The notes: generated by a model from the sequence alone, not told the origin. 64,000 bases of DNA from Bacteroidales bacterium (GCA_016707785.1 JADJGZ010000002.1:77033-141032), one strand, 5' to 3'. Shown: positions 22,418 through 37,708, counted from the stretch's first letter. A program made the numbers and translations.

Positions 22418-22462
22418 AAAATATTTTTTTCAATTGTTTTGTGATTGCAAAAATACATACCT

Positions 22463-22516
22463 TTGCTATACTTTTGTAACCACTATACTTTTGTATAGCA
22501 CTATACTTTTGTATAG
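22463..22516. promoter_or_regulatory. Tandem 18-bp operator-like repeats in the NmrA/HxlR divergent promoter
   Basis: CACTATACTTTTGTATAG occurs as two perfect adjacent copies (22481-22498, 22499-22516). A degenerate third copy TTGCTATACTTTTGTAAC lies at 22463-22480. Each unit contains the inverted repeat CTATAC-TTTT-GTATAG. The block ends 21 nt before the HxlR ATG. Confidence 0.55.
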
Positions 22517-28858: not shown

Positions 28859-29042
28859 TGTGCAATATGTTTTAATATTATGCCACCCCCACCATACTGT
28901 TAATGAAATAACAAACGGTGTGTTGAAGATGTTCGCCATCAATGTATCAATTATCAAAATTATTCAATACTGATGATAATTTCTCAATGACATATTTAAT
29001 TCAGGTAAATAAATTGTAGGATTCTTTTTATTTTTATTGCGT

Positions 29043-31049
29043 ATGCTACGAAAGTCTCTATTGCTCTTGGCCTTATGTTTTTTATATTTTCAGTTTCTAC
29101 AGGACGCTGAATGTCAGACTATTAAAATTAGATCAGAATTAGCATATGCAAAACTGGCCAGGTCAGCGGGTTCAGAAAAAGTGCAGTTGTTGTCTGAACT
29201 GGCTTACTATCGATCAAGCGATTCGATGAGCAGGGCCAAAGAATTGGCCTGGGAAGCTTACAATTATTCCATTCAAACCAAACAAGAACCCGATATTGCC
29301 AATTCACTCTTAAGCCTTGCAAGGGTTTATTACGATGCCGGAAATATTGACTCATCAAAAATCTTCCTCTTCAATTCGCAAAAGATTAAAAATGAAATTG
29401 AAGACATATCTGGTCTTGACAGGATTTATTTTTATTGGGGCATGATTCTTCAAAAGGATGGCAAATATCGGGAGGCAATTAAGAAGTACCAGATAGCCCT
29501 TCAATATGCCAGACTAAGCAGTAAAACTACGCTGCAGGCCCGTTGTTATACAGAACTGGCTAATTGTTACAAATTTCTGAACGAATCCGCTAAAATGAAT
29601 CAGTCGATAGAGGCTGCGCTCCTTACATTAAAAAAAGGAGGAGATTCCTTGCTGCTTTCCAATGCCTATTGTCACCTTGGGATTTTACAAAATGATCTCG
29701 GCCAGCTGGAAAATGCAGTGTCTTCATTTATTCAGTCTATCAGAATTGCAGAAGTACTGTGTGATAGTCTTGGACTAGGTTACCTCTGCTCTAATCTTGC
29801 AGGTGTATATGGTGCTTTCGCATTACCAGAGAAAGCTAATGAGTATAATCTGAAAGCTTATAATGTCTTTAAAAATACAGGAAATAAGAGGGGTATGGCC
29901 TATGCTTTGAATAGTTTAGGCATTACAGCTTCAGGATTAAAAGAAAATTCAAAAGCACTAAAGTACTATCTGGAAGCCGGGCAACTCAAAGTTGCGGTAG
30001 CTGACTGGCAAGGGGCATGTTTCATTTATAATAATATTGCTGATCTCTATATCAACACAAAGGAATTGACACTCGCAGGGAAATACCTGAAAATTGCAGA
30101 ATATTTTACCGGAAAGGCAGGTGATATGCTGTCAACGGTAGTATTCTACAATACATCCGGTCATTATCATTCAGCCAGGTATGAACATTCAATAGCCCGC
30201 AGTTTTTTTGAAAAGAGCCTTTACCTTGCTGAGACTGCAAAACTGCATGATTTTATCACGTCAAACCTTGAATCCATATCCGCCGAATATGATGCCGAGG
30301 GCAAACCCGGAGAAGCCCTGGCCTTCTTTAAAAGATACACTGCCAGGAAGGATTCGGTAGCCAGTTTAAATGACAGGAAAGCCATTGCTGAGATGCAGGT
30401 AAAGTACGATTCTGACAGAAAGGAGTCCCAGCTTAAGGAAATGAGTAGGTTGATCCTGAATAGCTCCCTGGAAAACCGTTCATTTCTCGCCGGAAATATT
30501 ACAATTGGATTGATGATCCTGCTGATTTCAGTTTTATTCCTTTATAGGATGAAATCTAAAATGAGACTAGCCAGCCAGGCTTCCGGAGCTGTCCATTCAG
30601 ATTTCCCGGGATTGGATCTTAAGAAAATCACTTTTATTACTGACCAGGCATCCAAACCAACCCTCACACCAGATCAGCAGCAATGGATCTGGTCAGAACT
30701 TAACCAGATCATGGATAAAGAAAAGTTGTTTCTCAACGGGAACCTGAAATTATCTGATCTTGCTCTCAGGCTGAATACAAATACCAGCTATCTTTCCAGG
30801 GTAATTAATGAGATGTCGAGGGAAAACTTCTGTAATTATCTCAATCAACTGCGTATCCGGGAGGCTCAACTACTGCTTTCTGATCCGGACAATTTATATT
30901 TGACGATTGAAGGGATTGCTCTTTCAGTAGGATTCAATTCCAAAAGTGCCTTCAATACCTCCTTTAAGAAATATACCTCAAAAACACCTTCCGAATACCT
31001 GAACAAGGTTCCATCTAAGGATAGAAAGCCTGTCTCAAACCCCAATTGA
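29043..31049 (+). CDS. Membrane-spanning TPR sensor fused to an AraC-type HTH domain (one-component regulator)
   Basis: About 668 aa from ATG 29043 (the ORF track begins at TTG 29037). It has a signal/anchor sequence and about 450 aa of TPR-like repeats. A single TM segment follows (FLAGNITIGLMILLISVLFLY), then a C-terminal AraC HTH (LSDLALRLNTNTSYLSRVINE...SVGFNSKSAFNTSFKKYTSKTPSEY). Confidence 0.8.
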   Translation: MLRKSLLLLALCFLYFQFLQDAECQTIKIRSELAYAKLARSAGSEKVQLLSELAYYRSSDSMSRAKELAWEAYNYSIQTKQEPDIANSLLSLARVYYDAGNIDSSKIFLFNSQKIKNEIEDISGLDRIYFYWGMILQKDGKYREAIKKYQIALQYARLSSKTTLQARCYTELANCYKFLNESAKMNQSIEAALLTLKKGGDSLLLSNAYCHLGILQNDLGQLENAVSSFIQSIRIAEVLCDSLGLGYLCSNLAGVYGAFALPEKANEYNLKAYNVFKNTGNKRGMAYALNSLGITASGLKENSKALKYYLEAGQLKVAVADWQGACFIYNNIADLYINTKELTLAGKYLKIAEYFTGKAGDMLSTVVFYNTSGHYHSARYEHSIARSFFEKSLYLAETAKLHDFITSNLESISAEYDAEGKPGEALAFFKRYTARKDSVASLNDRKAIAEMQVKYDSDRKESQLKEMSRLILNSSLENRSFLAGNITIGLMILLISVLFLYRMKSKMRLASQASGAVHSDFPGLDLKKITFITDQASKPTLTPDQQQWIWSELNQIMDKEKLFLNGNLKLSDLALRLNTNTSYLSRVINEMSRENFCNYLNQLRIREAQLLLSDPDNLYLTIEGIALSVGFNSKSAFNTSFKKYTSKTPSEYLNKVPSKDRKPVSNPN

Positions 31050-31074
31050 TCAACTAATTGATTTTCTAAATCAT

Positions 31075-31110
31075 GAAGCCTGTTCGGATTTATAAATCCG
31101 AACAGGCTTC
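31075..31110 (+). terminator. Perfect 36-nt palindrome (strong hairpin terminator/insulator)
   Basis: GAAGCCTGTTCGGATTTA (31075-31092) is followed directly by its exact reverse complement TAAATCCGAACAGGCTTC (31093-31110). It lies 26 nt after the regulator stop and is followed by GTTTG. Confidence 0.7.
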
Positions 31111-31220
31111 GTTTGCATTGACCCTTCAGGGCCCTCTACATTTGTGGCATCAATCCGACAGAAAACCAAGTTGAAACTTTCATAAACCAAATCAATTCTT
31201 ATCACTAAACAATTACAACA

Positions 31221-31580
31221 ATGGCAGAAGAAAAAATTTTTCTCGATGAAAAAGGTGTTAAAGTAACTAATGCCCGTTTCCTAACTTTTGGCAAAACCCA
31301 TTCCATGTCGGGGGTCACAGCTGTTAGTTCTTACATCATCAAACCCAATAGAAAGCAGCCCATCATCCTGGCTGTTATCGGACTGATCATTACTATTTTC
31401 CACTGGGCCGGGCTTATCCTGGTTGCCGGAGCCGTTGCTTTCTGGTTCCTTCAGAAGAATAAATACACCGTCTCTTTAAGTTCAGCCTCCGGAAATGAAG
31501 ACGCACTCACTGATCTTGACAAGGATTTCATCTTCAGGGTAGTGGATGCTTTAAATGAAGCCATTGTGTACAGGGGATAA
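31221..31580 (+). CDS. Small membrane protein of unknown function (soluble N-terminal segment plus hydrophobic hairpin)
   Basis: 119 aa. The sequence is KGVKVTNARFLTFGKTHSMSGVTAV... then PIILAVIGLIITIFHWAGLILVAGAVAFWFL, then ...YTVSLSSASGNEDALTDLDKDFIFRVVDALNEAI. It resembles small PH-like membrane proteins, but I cannot name the family securely. Confidence 0.6.
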   Translation: MAEEKIFLDEKGVKVTNARFLTFGKTHSMSGVTAVSSYIIKPNRKQPIILAVIGLIITIFHWAGLILVAGAVAFWFLQKNKYTVSLSSASGNEDALTDLDKDFIFRVVDALNEAIVYRG

Positions 31581-31708
31581 TCCTTTGAATTTTTATATGT
31601 GAATTCTATATCAGGCAGGCTTGTAATACCCACCATTGCAGGCCTGTTTTTTAACATCCCCAGACCCCGAAGCCACTATTTACAAATGTCAGTACCAATC
31701 CTCCTCTC

Positions 31709-33400
31709 ATGAAAGCCATTTCCTTTTTTTCCTTTTTATTTCTTTTACTGCTCAGCCAGATCAATGTTTGCGGACAAGAAAAAAATAAACCATCTATACC
31801 TGCACCGGTAGCAGCCTATCTTTTCGATGGGAACACGCTCAATTCAGCACCTGGTGGAGGAAAAGCAAAAATCAAACAGGGAAACATTGCATCAGGTCAT
31901 GATGGAAAGGCGCATTCCGCCTATTCTTTTTCAATCCATCCAAAAACATATAACAGTTCTGTTCAGAATATGAACTTCCCTATCGATATCAATCCCTCTA
32001 AATTCCCTTTACTCACTATCACTGCATGGGTCAAAGCCACTAACTGCTTTCGCAAAATGCTTGTGCTGGTGAATGGGACCGATAAATATGCCCGCGGGCT
32101 AATTATTGATAAGCATGATGATAATTTCAGGTTTGGAATGAACTGTGGCAAAGATGGGATTTTGTATGGCCCGCCTTTAATTGATGAATGGACCTTTATT
32201 GCCATGATTTACGACAGCAGAAACCAGGCAGCAAGGTTTATCATTAACGACCAGGTTTATTCATCAAGGGCAACTACACGTGATAATGCAGATAAAGCTT
32301 TTGTGGGAGCCTTCAACGGTACAATTGACGATATCCGGTTCTTTGATAAGATACTCACCCAGGCAGAAATTGAGCAACTGTCAGGAAAACCAATAACCGG
32401 AAACCTCTCTGAACTCGAAATCAAAGACCGTTACAGCTACAAAGAGAAAAGGAAACTTAAGGAAGAGAATAAAATCAAAGTGGGGGATATTTATATTGTC
32501 GATGCTCCGGAATACAAACTATTTGACACAACCAATCAAACAAATGCCACAAAAATTCTTGGTGAAGGAGATACCCTTTATGTGATCAGTAAATATGATG
32601 ATGGATGGTATAAAGTAACGGTTAATGGGGGTGCATCCGGTTTCACAACAAGAGGCACCATTATAAAATATGCCTATCCATCCGGGGGAAGTTCCTTCCT
32701 TCATAAACTCTCATATGAGTTCAGTCACATCTTCGATTTTACAAAACTTCGTTCATGGATCATTGTGGCCATCTTTGCAATTATCCTCTTTTTTGTCAAA
32801 CGCTATTTTATTAAACTGGACCTTTTACTTATCCGGCTAAGAAAGGGCGGGGATGAATTCGCGGGTGGCGGAGGTAAAAATGAGACCTCCTCACATTCAC
32901 AAGGCATTAACTTCCTGCACAAGATTTACCCGGTTAAAGCTTTTCAGTGGTATCCCCTGCTCTCGGGCTTAATGCTTGGTGCTACTCTATTCATAGGCTC
33001 ATTCTGGGATGGATACGAAATGGAATGGTTCTATAATGAAGGATTCAATATCCTTCCCATTGGGTACGACCGCCCGATACATTGGTTTTTTTACGGGATG
33101 ACTTTACTCACCATCCTGCTGACGATAAGCTGGTGCATAGAGAGTTTTGTAGTTGCCGGACCCTGGGTTGGTTTACTTCGGATACTTATCTTATTCATTC
33201 TGAATTTCATGTCGTTACTGGTATCCTTCTTTTTATTGGTGCTGGTGGCAGCCTTCATTCTCATCATGATAGGGTTGTGGGTGTTCGGGAATACTGTTGG
33301 ATCCGGTTCATACAAATGCCCTAGTTGTGGCCGCTCATTCAGTGCCTCTGCCGGAAGTTCGGTTTCCTGCCCGGGATGTGGAGCCAGTCTATCAACTTAG
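31709..33400 (+). CDS. Exported LamG-like / SH3-like domain protein with polytopic membrane region and C-terminal zinc ribbon
   Basis: 563 aa with signal peptide MKAISFFSFLFLLLLSQINVCGQ. The LamG/concanavalin-like region ends ...FNGTIDDIRFFDKILTQAEIEQL. The SH3-like stretch is VGDIYIVDAPEYKLFD...GDTLYVISKYDDGWYKVTV. About 5 hydrophobic helices follow, and the C-terminus is YKCPSCGRSFSASAGSSVSCPGCGASL. Confidence 0.75.
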   Translation: MKAISFFSFLFLLLLSQINVCGQEKNKPSIPAPVAAYLFDGNTLNSAPGGGKAKIKQGNIASGHDGKAHSAYSFSIHPKTYNSSVQNMNFPIDINPSKFPLLTITAWVKATNCFRKMLVLVNGTDKYARGLIIDKHDDNFRFGMNCGKDGILYGPPLIDEWTFIAMIYDSRNQAARFIINDQVYSSRATTRDNADKAFVGAFNGTIDDIRFFDKILTQAEIEQLSGKPITGNLSELEIKDRYSYKEKRKLKEENKIKVGDIYIVDAPEYKLFDTTNQTNATKILGEGDTLYVISKYDDGWYKVTVNGGASGFTTRGTIIKYAYPSGGSSFLHKLSYEFSHIFDFTKLRSWIIVAIFAIILFFVKRYFIKLDLLLIRLRKGGDEFAGGGGKNETSSHSQGINFLHKIYPVKAFQWYPLLSGLMLGATLFIGSFWDGYEMEWFYNEGFNILPIGYDRPIHWFFYGMTLLTILLTISWCIESFVVAGPWVGLLRILILFILNFMSLLVSFFLLVLVAAFILIMIGLWVFGNTVGSGSYKCPSCGRSFSASAGSSVSCPGCGASLST

Positions 33401-33456
33401 CACTCAGCTGACAGCATATCAAATAGTTATCCCATTTTTATAAATACAACAAGATA

Positions 33457-36400
33457 ATGAGAATCGATCGCTTTTTCCTCTCCAAAGCATTCCCGGATAA
33501 AGAAATTCAGCAATCATGGAATGCAGGACATGCTATTAATGAAGCCTCATATGGCAATGGAAGCTGGGCATTGACCGTTGCCTCCGTTAGTGAATATACA
33601 GGACAACAATGGAACACTGATGGTGAATTTCCTGTTGAAGAAATAAAAAACGGATGGAATGCGGGGAAGGATGTGACGTTCCTGGGGTATGGCGATGGAC
33701 GGTGGGTACTGTTCATGTCGGAAAACTCAGGTTATACTGACCAGATCTGGAGAACCAGTTCCCGCTTTCCTGAAAAGGAAATTCAAACAGGGATTAAGGA
33801 TGGATATTTTGTGACTCAACTGGCCTTTGGTTCTGATAGATGGGGTCTTATCATGTCAAAAGGAAGCAGTTATGATGAGCAGCTATATAACAGTTATAAT
33901 GAATTTCCGAAAACCGCAATTCAAAAAGGATGGGATTCGGGATATGATATCACCTCTTTAGCTTATGGGAATGGCAAATGGGGCCTTATCCTCACCAAGG
34001 GAACTGGTTTTGGTATGCAGCAATGGTACACAAACCCGGAATTCCCTATGAATGATATCAATGATAAAATCAGGGAAGGATATAGCATCAGCACCTTAAC
34101 ATTTGGCAATGATGCATGGGCCCTGGCAATGACAGAAATGGAAGCGGATTCAGAGGAAGAAAGTGAAGAAGAAATTGAATCAGGTGGAGGTAAAGTTGAC
34201 AAGGTAGCGGTAAATATAAATCCTGAGTCTGAACGATTATCGGCTGTAGGCAGCCAGTTTTTCAATAAAGGGGATTATGATAAGGCGATTGTTCAGTTCA
34301 AAAAGGCCATTGACCTGGACCCGAAGAATGTGGATGCACTGGCCGGAATTGCAACTACTTATACATGGAAAGATGATTTTGATACTGCCTTAGTCTATTA
34401 TGAAAAAGCCTTTGCCCTGGATAAGAACTCCCCTATTCTTGCTTCCAATCTTATAAGCACATATAACTATAAGGAAAATGATGAAAAGGTACTGGAAACA
34501 GTAAACCTGGCAACTCCCGGTTGTATCGACCAGATTGAATTTGCTGAAACCTTTAATGCAATCGGTGTTGCATTTTTTAATAAAAATCAGTTCGAAAAAG
34601 CCATCCACTATTACAAAAAGGCGATAAAAATTGATCCAAAGAATGAGTGTTACAATGATAACCTGGAGCATGCAGAAGAAAACCTTAAACAGCAACCGGC
34701 CCTTCAGTCGGAAACGGTTGCTCAGCCGGCCATTTACCAGGTGCCTGATATAGGTGATGAAGAGTTACTGAACCTGTCGCTGAAGGAATTAAACGGACTA
34801 ACCGGCCTTGACACGATTAAAAGGGATGTTGAAGACCTGATGAAGTATATCAGGATTGAAAAGCTTCGTCAGCAAAGGGGCCTAAATGTTAACCCGGTAG
34901 CACTACATTCTGTTTTCTCAGGCCCCCCGGGAACCGGAAAAACTACTGTAGCCCGATTGCTAGGGAAAATATTCAAAGCCATGGGATTATTGAAGAAGGG
35001 GCATGTTGTGGAGGTTGACCGCTCAGGACTGGTAGCTGAATATATTGGGCAGACGGCATTAAAAACGAATAAAATCATTGATACGGCACTTGATGGCATC
35101 CTCTTTATTGATGAAGCCTATAGCCTGGCCCCGGAAGAAGATCCGAGGGATTTTGGGAAAGAAGCCATTGAGACATTGTTAAAAAGAATGGAAGATAGCC
35201 GGGACCGGTTGATCGTGATTGTTGCTGGATATACCCAGGAAATGAAACGTTTTATTGAAGCAAACCCAGGGTTACAATCCCGTTTTACCCGCTATTTTTT
35301 CTTTGAGGATTACAGCCCTCAACAGTTATCTGATATATTCATCGAAATCACCAAATCGCGTGATTTCAGGATTGAACAGGAGGCCATTGATAAACTGCTG
35401 CGATACACCGGGTTTCTTTATCAATCAAGGACAAAAAGCTTTGGAAATGCCCGGGTGATGCGGAACCTGTTTGAGGAAGTGGTCAGGTTACAGTCGGGAC
35501 GATTGGCAATGCTTCCACATATCAGTGATGATGACCTGGTTACATTCACTGAGTCAGATATCACTGAAGCAGTAAAAGATGAGTTTGCAGATGAAAAACA
35601 GGAAACCCTTGAGGATGTTCTCAAGGAATTGCAACTACTTACCGGGCTAGGAAATGTAAAGAAAGATGTTTCTACCCTGATCAATTATATAAAAATTGAA
35701 AAGATGCGGAGGGAGAAGGGGTTGGGATCCAACTCCATTAGTCTGCATACTGTTTTTTATGGGCCTCCGGGAACCGGAAAAACCACGGTTGCCCGCATGC
35801 TTGGACGAATCTTCAAAGCGATGGGTATCCTCTCAAAAGGCCATGTGGTAGAAGTGTCGAGGGCCGATCTTGTTGGACAATATATTGGGCATACAGCACC
35901 CAAAACTATGAAAGTGATCGACTCAGCCATTCATGGCATTCTCTTTATTGATGAGGCCTATATGCTCACTCCTGCTGACTCATCCAATGATTTCGGGCAA
36001 GAAGCTGTCGACACCCTTCTAAAACGTATGGAAGATGACCGGGACAAGCTCGTAGTGATTGTAGCCGGATATACTGAAGAAATGAATCATTTCCTGGAAT
36101 CCAACCCCGGCCTCCGATCCAGGTTTAACAGGAATTTTTATTTCAATGACTATGAATCTCTAGAATTGACAGAAATCTTCCTCGGAATGTGTAAGGCAAA
36201 CCACTTCCAGGTAACCCTGAAGTGCCGGAAATAGTACAGGAATACTTCAGTACCTTATATGAATCAAAGGATCATAGCTTTGGAAATGGCAGAATGGTCA
36301 GGAACTATTTTGAGAAAATGATCCAGGTGCATTCCGACAGAATTTCTCTGTTGCCGGAAGTGGATGAGGCTACATTAAACACCTTCGCCCCTGAGGATGC

Positions 36401-36467
36401 GGAAAAGGCAATGGATAGACCCCTTTCCGGCGGTGGAGGAAAGAAAGCAATCGGATTTAAACACTAA
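33457..36467 (+). pseudogene. Large repeat-TPR-tandem AAA+ ATPase (CbbX/SpoVK/EccA-like modules); reading frame broken by a 1-nt frameshift near 36215-36217 as assembled
   Basis: ORF 33457-36234 (925 aa) plus ORF 36222-36467 (81 aa). It has five 46-aa repeats, an acidic linker and TPRs. Two AAA+ modules each carry GPPGTGKTTVAR (34921-, 35761-), ILFIDEAY and VIVAGYT.EM..F...NPGL.SRF. The 81-aa ORF (PEIVQEYFSTLYESKDHSFGNGRMVRNYFEK...) aligns with the lid of module 1 (EAIDKLLRYTGFLYQSRTKSFGNARVMRNLFEE...). One extra C in the CCC run would fuse the frames. Confidence 0.85.
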
Positions 36468-36475
36468 AGCATCGT

Positions 36476-37708
36476 ATGATCAAGTACCTTGAAAACCGGG
36501 TCTGGGCTTTAAACGCCCGGATTGTCCAGACAGACGCAGATCCAATAATTATCAATGAACAGATTCAGGGAAAAATTACTTCCGGGCTCTTTTCAGAGGG
36601 TGGTATTCAGTTTGCTTACAGTGAAAACCCAATAGGTAACTATTCCTTCAGGCCTATTGAAATAACTATGAAATGCACAGAGGTGGCAATTGCAAAATAC
36701 CAGGAATTACTGGACAAAAAAGAAATTCCTTTCCTGTTGACCTCCTTCCGCTTCATTATAAACACTTTTGGATTCCTTAATATCCTTCCCATCTTTGAAT
36801 TCAAGGGTAAGATAGAAGAAGAACAACTTTCAGCTATTGAATCTTTTGGAGATGCTTCAGCAGAAGTATTAGACGGATTATTTGAAGAAATTTCCCGTGT
36901 GATTGATATCCTGGATGAAATAGGCATACTGAAAAAATCGGCTTTTTATCATTTTGGTGTTCCATCAGGCATCGAAAAGTACCAGGTCCATACCAAAGAC
37001 GACAGCTATAACTACCTCGTTCATCAGTTCTATATTAATGATTCCGAACAATTATTGAAAACAGTAACTCATTACCAGGTAGAAGAACAGTCCAACACCT
37101 TTGAAAATCATCAGTATTATGCGGTATTCCCTATTTATTTCTGGGAACTGAAACAGCGGGTAGATGATGAAGAGTTGGTCAGATTAACTTCCATCGACAG
37201 CTATATGATCTGTGAAACCGTTGCGATTAATAACTCCCTTCATGTTTACAATTCCTTCCTGGATTGTTTGAATCAAAACCTGGAAATTGACTCCAACCAT
37301 CTTCGGAATATTTTCAATTATAACACCTGGCAAATTCAGAACCTTCGACTGTTCAATCCCAATTTCACCTTGCACCAGTTCCGTTTCATGAAGACTTATC
37401 GCAAGAATTCAGATATTGAATCAAAATATGAATTATACAAGGATGCTGAGAAATCCCTATCCTTTGCCATAGAAGGAATGGAGGTATCCCGAACCCAGCA
37501 ATCGGAACGGGTCATGCAATTCATTCTTGCCCTGTTTACGGCACTAACCCTATATTCAGTTATTACAGATGTTTATGCGCTTATCACATCGAGTGTGGAT
37601 TCGGTACCTTTTTCCCTTCACTCTATGCAAAGTATCATTTTTATCCTCGAAACCCTGGTGATTATCTCCTTTATCCTGTTTTTCAGAAAAATCAGCAGGA
37701 AGTTATAA
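36476..37708 (+). CDS. Hypothetical protein with soluble N-terminal domain and two C-terminal TM helices (CorA-like topology, no GMN motif)
   Basis: 410 aa, starting 8 nt after the AAA+ gene. The C-terminus reads ...SERVMQFILALFTALTLYSVITDVYALITSS (TM1), then a short loop, then IIFILETLVIISFILFFRKISRKL (TM2 with a basic tail). Confidence 0.7.
   Translation: MIKYLENRVWALNARIVQTDADPIIINEQIQGKITSGLFSEGGIQFAYSENPIGNYSFRPIEITMKCTEVAIAKYQELLDKKEIPFLLTSFRFIINTFGFLNILPIFEFKGKIEEEQLSAIESFGDASAEVLDGLFEEISRVIDILDEIGILKKSAFYHFGVPSGIEKYQVHTKDDSYNYLVHQFYINDSEQLLKTVTHYQVEEQSNTFENHQYYAVFPIYFWELKQRVDDEELVRLTSIDSYMICETVAINNSLHVYNSFLDCLNQNLEIDSNHLRNIFNYNTWQIQNLRLFNPNFTLHQFRFMKTYRKNSDIESKYELYKDAEKSLSFAIEGMEVSRTQQSERVMQFILALFTALTLYSVITDVYALITSSVDSVPFSLHSMQSIIFILETLVIISFILFFRKISRKL

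Follow-up and report, generated by a model that had tools for sequence, protein, structure and literature searches.

A LamG membrane protein gene and a tandem AAA+ ATPase gene form a conserved pair beside a candidate AraC-TPR operator in environmental Bacteroidia

Gene content of the locus

The window analyzed here is a 64,000-nucleotide (nt) stretch of DNA from a Bacteroidales bacterium (GCA_016707785.1, JADJGZ010000002.1:77033-141032), and all positions without a locus name are counted from its first letter. Between positions 31221 and 37708, it contained four consecutive genes that an earlier interpretation, made from the window's DNA only (the sequence-only reading), had described as one candidate for an undescribed membrane-coupled ATPase system. 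The conserved unit, however, consisted of gene 2, which encodes a predicted transmembrane (TM) protein with LamG and SH3-like domains, and gene 3, which encodes an ATPase with two AAA+ modules. These two genes were obligate neighbors, and the unit was not genes 2-4. The locus comprised the following features:

29037..31049, + strand: AraC-TPR regulator gene, candidate operon activator (Pfam TPR_12, HTH_18, and HTH_AraC; hydropathy)
31060..31072, no strand: imperfect upstream copy of the palindromic motif, GATTTTCTAAATC, read from the sequence; forms a small first hairpin
31075..31110, no strand: perfect 36-nt palindrome, with the core GATTTATAAATC at 31087-31098
31111..31144, + strand: putative Bacteroidetes-type promoter, with the -33 element TTTG at 31111-31114 and the -7 element TACATTTG at 31137-31144
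31221..31580, + strand: gene 1, small DUF6232 membrane protein; optional, and first in the operon where present (Pfam, hydropathy)
31709..33400, + strand: gene 2, LamG-SH3-TM protein, core member (Pfam, AlphaFold2, Foldseek, family alignment)
33457..36467, + strand: gene 3, DUF7477, acidic linker, TPR, and two AAA+ modules; frameshifted; core member (Pfam)
36476..37708, + strand: gene 4, 410 amino acids (aa), two C-terminal TM helices, orphan family; clade-specific accessory

Calling of open reading frames (ORFs) reproduced the coordinates of genes 1, 2, and 4 and the gaps of 128, 56, and 8 nt between the genes, and the convergent gene 17 nt beyond the cassette was identified as a fructosamine-kinase gene. 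The perfect palindrome was present where it had been reported. The domain calls also held in Pfam (DUF6232 in gene 1; LamG, SH3, and a zinc ribbon in gene 2; repeats, TPR, and two AAA+ modules in gene 3), and the two C-terminal TM helices of gene 4 were seen by hydropathy. In contrast, gene 3 was not the single ORF of about 1000 aa that had been read, because a frameshift near its 3' end had been overlooked. No paralogues of genes 2 or 3 were detected within the window.

Genes 2 and 3 are obligate neighbors

Loci were gathered separately with gene 3 anchors and with gene 2 anchors, and their neighbors were scored by BLAST of the called ORFs. This yielded 33 distinct gene 2 loci, 31 of which had at least 400 nt of downstream-side sequence. 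Gene 3 came directly after gene 2, in the same orientation, in all but one of these informative loci (30/31), and the last one (L032) had a three-module relative that was adjacent and divergent to a gene 2 homologue of 34% identity. Furthermore, a gene 2 homologue was located directly upstream of every true orthologue in the gene 3-anchored loci. The outer flanks varied by lineage (cytochrome bd, LepA/ValRS, PriA/RecQ, or caspases/CsgG), thus indicating that the pairing is not plain collinearity. The carriers were Bacteroidales and Lentimicrobium metagenome-assembled genomes (MAGs), and the contig records came from activated-sludge and other metagenomes. The synteny comparison across genomes that had been suggested for genes 2-4 therefore separated them: genes 2 and 3 were adjacent in 31/31 loci and qualify as an undescribed membrane-coupled ATPase unit, whereas boundaries that include gene 4 (6/33) were not sustained. 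No candidate client gene was conserved beside the pair among the loci compared. Genes for extracytoplasmic function (ECF) sigma factors were found near some loci of the pair; given the abundance of such genes, this proximity was considered a coincidence. In one locus (L029, 278-6746), two caspase genes and genes for a CsgG/SH3_3 lipoprotein and a Fib_succ_major protein adjoined the pair, a neighborhood seen in none of the other loci.

Gene 3 was assigned by Pfam to DUF7477 repeats, a TPR region, and two copies of AAA with AAA_lid_6, and no TM segment was detected by hydropathy within the N-terminal region scanned. Its best matches among solved structures (PDB) were CbbX (3syk, 7.6e-59) and EccA1 (9lur, 6.5e-54), compared with about 1e-13 for Cdc48/VAT. 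In NCBIfam, it scored 524.9 bits with spore_V_K (cut-off 423) and 497 bits with EccA (cut-off 467), these scores being summed over the two AAA+ modules; the CbbX equivalog TIGR02880 reached 427.7 bits, which is under its cut-off of 459.25 despite the two modules. The CbbX/SpoVK/EccA type that had been proposed for the tandem AAA+ region was thus borne out by the PDB and NCBIfam matches. Module 1 (34759-35574) and module 2 (35600-36467) were 54% identical, and both contained Walker A, Walker B, a Y-I-G pore loop, a GY sensor-1, and a sensor-2 Arg, all of which were kept across the relatives inspected (pore loop Y/F-I/V-G in most of them, GY in all). The sensor-1 sequences of modules 1 and 2 are LIVIVAGY and LVVIVAGY, respectively; their sensor-2 sequences, FGNAR and FGNGR, align with FANAR of CbbX. 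The Arg-finger region is NPGLRSR in module 2 (Arg at +4 and +6) and NPGLQSR in module 1 (Gln at +4, Arg at +6); the family as a whole varied at +4 (Q/K/R/E), and the Asn and the +6 Arg were invariant. The clade of SpoVK-EccA-like proteins is defined by a GY at sensor-1, an Asn that precedes the first Arg finger by four residues, and a sensor-2 Arg that has been kept, and its members are specialized chaperones in which variable N-domains recruit a dedicated client and which have no peptidase partner (PMC11513918). By its sequence, gene 3 belongs to this SpoVK/EccA/CbbX clade of specialized AAA+ chaperones, and its product is predicted to be a cytoplasmic protein with two catalytically complete AAA+ modules. 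Two relatives (P0061 and P0042) had three or four AAA+ modules, indicating repeated changes of module number within this family. In Bacteroidales and Lentimicrobium MAGs, orthologues of about 1000 aa were common, and relatives of about 820 aa were without TPRs.

The N-terminal repeats of gene 3 matched DUF7477 (Pfam, E = 4e-37). The AlphaFold2 model of this region (pLDDT 95.7) consists of five strand-helix-strand-strand (EHEE) units, and its sole PDB match in Foldseek was the N-domain of 7tpu_A (probability 1.0, TM-score 0.60). This domain of the Fusarium polyglycine hydrolase has been described as a novel five-repeat EHEE barrel that may serve in substrate positioning (PMC9912923). The N-domain of gene 3 is therefore modeled with the rare polyglycine-hydrolase N-domain fold, for which the present locus provides the first bacterial genomic context. 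A contig scan with one peptide pattern retrieved 18 loci, 10 of which had other DUF7477 architectures. DUF7477 was also located behind signal peptides and joined, in other Bacteroidota loci, to a caspase (Peptidase_C14) via an Ig-like domain or to a metalloprotease of the astacin type (Haliscomenobacter), and elsewhere to a zinc-finger region that is Cys-rich and DnaJ-like (loci of these fusions: L017, L019, L021, L023, L024; L018, L020, L022; L026, L027). Including the fungal polyglycine hydrolase, these are four independent fusions of DUF7477 to polypeptide-processing or polypeptide-binding modules, and the caspase and astacin fusions indicate that the domain recurs beside enzymes that act on polypeptides. 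DUF7477 was a constant N-terminal feature of the paired ATPases, and a TPR-AAA-AAA relative without it (Flagellimonas; one context examined) had no LamG neighbor.

Gene 2 matched Laminin_G_3 in Pfam, with weak matches to SH3 and zinc-ribbon families. Its AlphaFold2 model (pLDDT 83.8) contains, in this order, a signal helix, a LamG jelly roll, and an SH3-like barrel, followed by helices at 347-365, 415-444, and 456-483, a long helix at 485-529, and the zinc ribbon. About five TM helices had been proposed; the count is four or five, since AlphaFold2 draws residues 485-529 as a single long helix. Foldseek returned only lectin-type LamG/ConA-like domains for this model and no information on the TM domain. 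The family alignment showed conserved loop motifs and a highly conserved zinc ribbon (23/27 sequences), and comparison of the ribbon with the presence of TPRs in gene 3 revealed no link. Homologues that lack the ribbon end in a short, basic tail, and the C-terminus is therefore placed in the cytoplasm. The model thus suggests that gene 2 encodes an inner-membrane protein with periplasmic LamG and SH3-like domains and with a 50-residue loop 1 and a tail in the cytoplasm.

In the deposited sequence, the frame of gene 3 from 33457 ends at a TAG at 36232-36234 after 925 codons, with its final 81 codons lying in the -1 frame (36222-36467). The addition of one base at the CCC run at 36215-36217 gives a protein of 1003 aa. 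An intact relative of 1003 aa (P0266) was present in the protein cluster of the truncated product, and the repaired protein aligned to it without gaps and with 35 mismatches (96.5% identity); across the frameshift junction, P0266 reads HFQLMPEVTEIV. The 81 post-shift codons differed from P0266 at five positions, a conservation about that of the remainder, and no further stops or indels were found in the repaired gene. If gene 3 were a true pseudogene here, the cassette would be decaying and the locus non-functional in this organism. Such decay would account for the frameshift in the deposited sequence, and the closest genome fetched (L028, GCA_016708515.1; 96% nucleotide identity, aligned to 21689-42575) likewise had a split gene 3 and a truncated gene 4. 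However, L028 is in frame at the frameshift site of the window, and its gene 3 is split elsewhere, at a T6 run. At least four single-base, frame-breaking deletions occurred in about 20 kb of L028 (in gene 3, gene 4, and a 492-aa gene), two of which sit in homopolymer or dinucleotide runs. The different sites, the single-base and run-associated nature of these breaks, and the splitting of another gene point to indel errors of the L028 assembly. The contig name of a related MAG (L001) was of the long-read "tig" type. Given also the intact orthologue, the conserved codons past the shift, and the lack of additional lesions in gene 3, decay is unlikely, and the frameshift most likely stems from an indel in the assembly or from a mutation that arose very recently. 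Programmed frameshifting was considered and rejected, because there was no slippery heptamer at 36195-36232 and the full-length relatives inspected were uninterrupted, except for L028, which is split at a different site.

The other two genes had a narrower distribution. Gene 1 belongs to DUF6232 (Pfam, E = 2.4e-15) and has a single 34-residue hydrophobic stretch by hydropathy. The gene directly upstream of gene 2 encoded DUF6232 in 11/33 loci, an unrelated membrane protein of about 340 aa in 11/33, and neither in 11/33. The latter protein was without a Pfam match (for example, L007 5307-6296, L029 6935-7927, and L030 6971-7981, plus eight loci), and no sequence similarity was detectable between it and the DUF6232 protein for which it substitutes. 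Gene 4 was found beside gene 3 in 6/33 loci, all of which are close relatives with gene 2 at 55% identity or more; in the window's clade, it follows gene 3 on the same strand by -4 to 77 nt. Gene 1 had been considered less tightly linked than genes 2-4, which is reversed for gene 4, as gene 1 was linked more widely. In L002-L005, gene 4 occurred alone and amid unrelated genes. Copies with identities of 60 and 43% were located after a Por_Secre_tail esterase gene or after a TetR gene, and the context of one distant relative was limited to a 1.7-kb contig. An index of 5.8 billion proteins contained 39 homologues, and a profile search of 1.84 billion representatives identified 76 family members, which are proteins of about 400 aa with two C-terminal TM helices. 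Gene 4 had no match in Pfam, NCBIfam, PADLOC, or PDB; together with 56 relatives, it was without any Pfam family at E ≤ 0.01, including CorA, and the loop between TM1 and TM2, TSSVDSVPFSLHSMQS, is without a GMN motif. The "CorA topology" ascribed to gene 4 is thus a topological resemblance only, which it shares with the CorA Mg2+ channel in the two C-terminal TM helices and in nothing else. Gene 4 is a clade-specific accessory from a very small orphan family and not a core member.

These findings bear on the function that the sequence-only reading had envisaged, namely a four-gene cassette with gene 4 as a CorA-like pore, insulated by the palindrome and acting as an abortive-infection, defense, or secretion-chaperone module. 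The short distance by which gene 4 trails gene 3 in the window's clade would fit such a cassette, the arrangement of TPRs and CbbX-like AAA+ resembles EccA, and PADLOC-DB 2.0 matched gene 3 to the AAA+ cores of IetA, TRIP13, and others (E = 1e-17 or weaker). However, the region covered by these PADLOC matches is confined to the generic AAA+ core, and no match was obtained for genes 1, 2, and 4. The flanks are housekeeping genes (cytochrome bd, LepA, ValRS, PriA, and LpxD), the GC content of the cassette equals that of its surroundings, and there are no type VII secretion genes. The supposed pore-like partner is absent from 27/33 loci and occurs without the pair elsewhere. A four-gene system of this kind is consequently very improbable, and its abortive-infection or defense role found no support.

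Palindrome, promoter, and AraC-TPR regulator

As judged by Pfam and hydropathy, the product of the regulator gene (29037-31049) has a hydrophobic segment at its N-terminus, followed by a TPR region and a TM segment (481-507), and ends in an AraC-type helix-turn-helix (HTH). This order of signal or anchor, TPR, TM, and HTH suggests a membrane-bound one-component regulator in which the TPRs face outward. Homologues of the regulator were found near the pair in 16/33 loci, and were positioned directly upstream, several kb upstream, or convergent downstream. In an alignment of eight diverged regulator-to-operon spacers, only GATTTATAAATC and the TAnnTTTG box (31137-31144) were invariant. Exact copies of this 12-mer were detected in 27 of the 57 fetched loci, all upstream of the module's first gene except for one intragenic copy in L032, and in most loci carrying it, the distance from the start of the 12-mer to the downstream -7 box is exactly 50 nt. 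This spacing was kept where the AraC gene is kilobases distant (L030, L045, and L048) or was not found within 8 kb (L011). The relatives often had a second exact 12-mer, 39-53 nt upstream of the proximal one. Allowing at most one mismatch, the motif was present in all AraC-positive loci taken together with the window (17/17) vs. 4/15 AraC-negative loci (Fisher p ~1e-5); the AraC-positive locus L029 had copies with one mismatch. These sequence patterns characterize the palindrome core as an activator-operator-like site that is phased with the putative promoter and co-occurs with the AraC-TPR gene, and by this co-occurrence the AraC-TPR protein looks like the binder of GATTTATAAATC.

The promoter at 31111..31144 was called with the -33/-7 consensus of Bacteroides promoters. 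On the + strand, the -7 box is the single copy of TAnnTTTG between 30903 and 36274, and it was located at the same place in the relatives. No enrichment of TAnnTTTG was observed across the whole window, and therefore only its conserved position counts as promoter evidence. A sigma-70 promoter and terminator scan gave counts near those of shuffled sequence and was uninformative for this phylum, and no Rfam element was found in 30900-31800. Five TAnnTTTG copies occurred within 64 nt at 22448-22511, four of which are on the + strand (22458, 22469, 22486, and 22504) and one on the - strand. In five loci with the ~340-aa upstream gene (L007, L045, L047, L049, and L053), the right flank of the 12-mer is CAACCTATAAATACTT, which partially repeats TATAAAT in direct orientation; this flanking repeat suggests a composite site.

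The palindrome could also be read as the intrinsic terminator of the AraC-TPR gene, conserved by shared ancestry rather than by protein binding. It begins 26 nt past the stop codon of that gene and folds at -30.5 kcal/mol (z = -7.9) into a stem of 16-18 bp, and longer arms with compensatory changes were found in L009/L013 and L033. On the other hand, no T-run follows the stem (tail GTTTGCATTG), and the terminator scan did not list the palindrome. Bacteroidetes terminators may depart from the rule of a GC stem followed by a T-run. Ancestry would leave the 12-nt core unexplained, as it is invariant amid a diverged spacer and is held at 50 nt from the -7 box even in the four loci without an AraC gene as upstream neighbor (L030, L045, L048, and L011). 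Among 19 distinct loci, an invariant G/C was found at +/-5, and outside it and the core the complementarity of the arms was near random, which indicates that the long hairpin is specific to the window's clade. A terminator as the sole reason for this conservation is thus quite unlikely, although the long arms may double as a terminator of the regulator transcript in this clade. Nor does the palindrome insulate the cassette, as had been claimed; through its promoter-phased core, it connects the cassette with the upstream AraC-TPR gene that the sequence-only reading had excluded, and the palindrome-insulated four-gene system loses a further argument.

Proposed function and relation to known systems

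The reading that we favor, and consider somewhat probable, is that of a regulated envelope module with a two-gene core, in which the ATPase remodels gene 2 under AraC-TPR control. The AraC-TPR protein would sense a periplasmic cue and bind GATTTATAAATC, centered about 55 nt upstream of the start site, and this binding would activate genes 2 and 3 together with gene 1 or the gene that substitutes for it and, in the window's clade, with gene 4. The ATPase ring would then dock via DUF7477 and TPR on the cytoplasmic face of gene 2 and spend ATP to remodel gene 2 or a complex nucleated by it. Cytoplasmic ATP hydrolysis would thereby be coupled to the state of the periplasmic lectin/SH3 domain.

Several observations weigh against this reading. 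We infer the physical contact between the products of genes 2 and 3, as well as the part of gene 2 that is contacted. The number and topology of the TM helices of gene 2 (four or five) are unsettled, and about one third of its homologues are without the zinc ribbon while gene 3 shows no corresponding change. In module 1, a Gln occupies the first Arg-finger position, which is variable in the family. As to regulation, the Lentimicrobium clade has the gene pair without the regulator and without the motif, indicating that the regulation is not intrinsic to the pair, and L011 has the motif but lacks an AraC gene within 8 kb. The usual targets of AraC-family proteins are asymmetric direct repeats, and a perfect palindrome is unusual for them. 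The factor that binds the palindrome core could be other than the AraC-TPR protein.

The main rival assigns gene 2 a smaller role: it would only anchor or regulate the ATPase at the membrane according to LamG/SH3 sensing, and the clients of this localized chaperone would be cytoplasmic enzymes of envelope biosynthesis. The actions of SpoVK on MurG and of EccA1 on mycolate enzymes provide precedents, and the obligate pairing suits an anchor as well as a client. However, no client gene was conserved next to the pair, and DUF7477 tracks gene 2, which is simpler if DUF7477 binds gene 2. This alternative is possible but doubtful. Beyond remodeling in general, an inside-out mechanotransmission could be envisaged, in which a double-ring unfoldase, induced by AraC-TPR, pulls a loop or the tail of gene 2 and thereby actuates the periplasmic lectin/SH3 region, and in which DUF7477 acts as a polypeptide-recruitment domain of proteases and unfoldases; this specific form is rather improbable. 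FtsEX offers a pure analogy to it in the proposed logic only, with a cytoplasmic ATPase that drives a periplasmic domain through a polytopic membrane partner. There is no relation in sequence or fold, as FtsE is an ABC ATPase and not AAA+.

A remodeling module of this kind would be of interest because the chaperones of this clade are thought to serve one dedicated client each and very few clients are known, and genome context here unambiguously names a candidate client or anchor for gene 3. The regulator and its operator could help in finding the inducing signal. Because the host lineages are poorly studied, only a modest practical impact is expected before a phenotype becomes known. Searches of the literature for DUF7477, DUF6232, the 12-mer, or SpoVK with LamG in Bacteroidetes returned nothing relevant. 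The novelty lies in an architecture and a partner set inside a recognized chaperone clade, with a testable regulator and operator.

Among known regulators, the ToxR/VtrA-type and Bacteroides SusR-like proteins similarly combine an extracytoplasmic sensor domain, a TM helix, and a DNA-binding domain on the cytoplasmic side in one polypeptide that is encoded beside the target operon. They differ from the AraC-TPR protein in its C-terminal AraC-type HTH, its TPR-array sensor, and its perfect-palindrome operator. The resemblance to SusR is a presumed one, suggested by a faint Pfam match in one homologue. The DUF7477 region shares with the N-domain of 7tpu the five quasi-identical E-H-E-E repeats of about 44-46 residues, the barrel, and the fusion to a polypeptide-acting enzyme. 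In contrast, the domain is carried there by a secreted protease and in gene 3 by a cytoplasmic, unfoldase-type ATPase, and the repeats of gene 3 are clearly alike in sequence, unlike those of Fvan-cmp.

EccA of the mycobacterial type VII (ESX) systems also has N-terminal TPRs followed by a CbbX-like AAA+ module and is a cytoplasmic partner of a membrane machine. Gene 3 has an additional DUF7477 and a second AAA+ module, its TPRs are dispensable in the ~820-aa relatives, and no EccB-E, MycP, or Esx genes were found in the flanks of the window or in the related loci with gene tables examined. With the SpoVK/CbbX/EccA clade as a whole (PMC11513918), gene 3 shares the similarity to CbbX and EccA1, the GY sensor-1, Asn-x-Gly-x(3)-Arg, the sensor-2 Arg, a variable N-domain that is presumed to recruit the client, and the lack of a partner peptidase. 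That account makes no mention of LamG, Bacteroidetes, or tandem forms, and does not list an N-terminus of DUF7477, with or without TPR. No RuBisCO genes were detected near gene 3, which is without a RuBisCO, sporulation, or type VII secretion context. The clade members have one AAA+ module, whereas gene 3 has two and its relatives have three or four, and gene 3 is accompanied by an obligate polytopic membrane partner in a Bacteroidia host.

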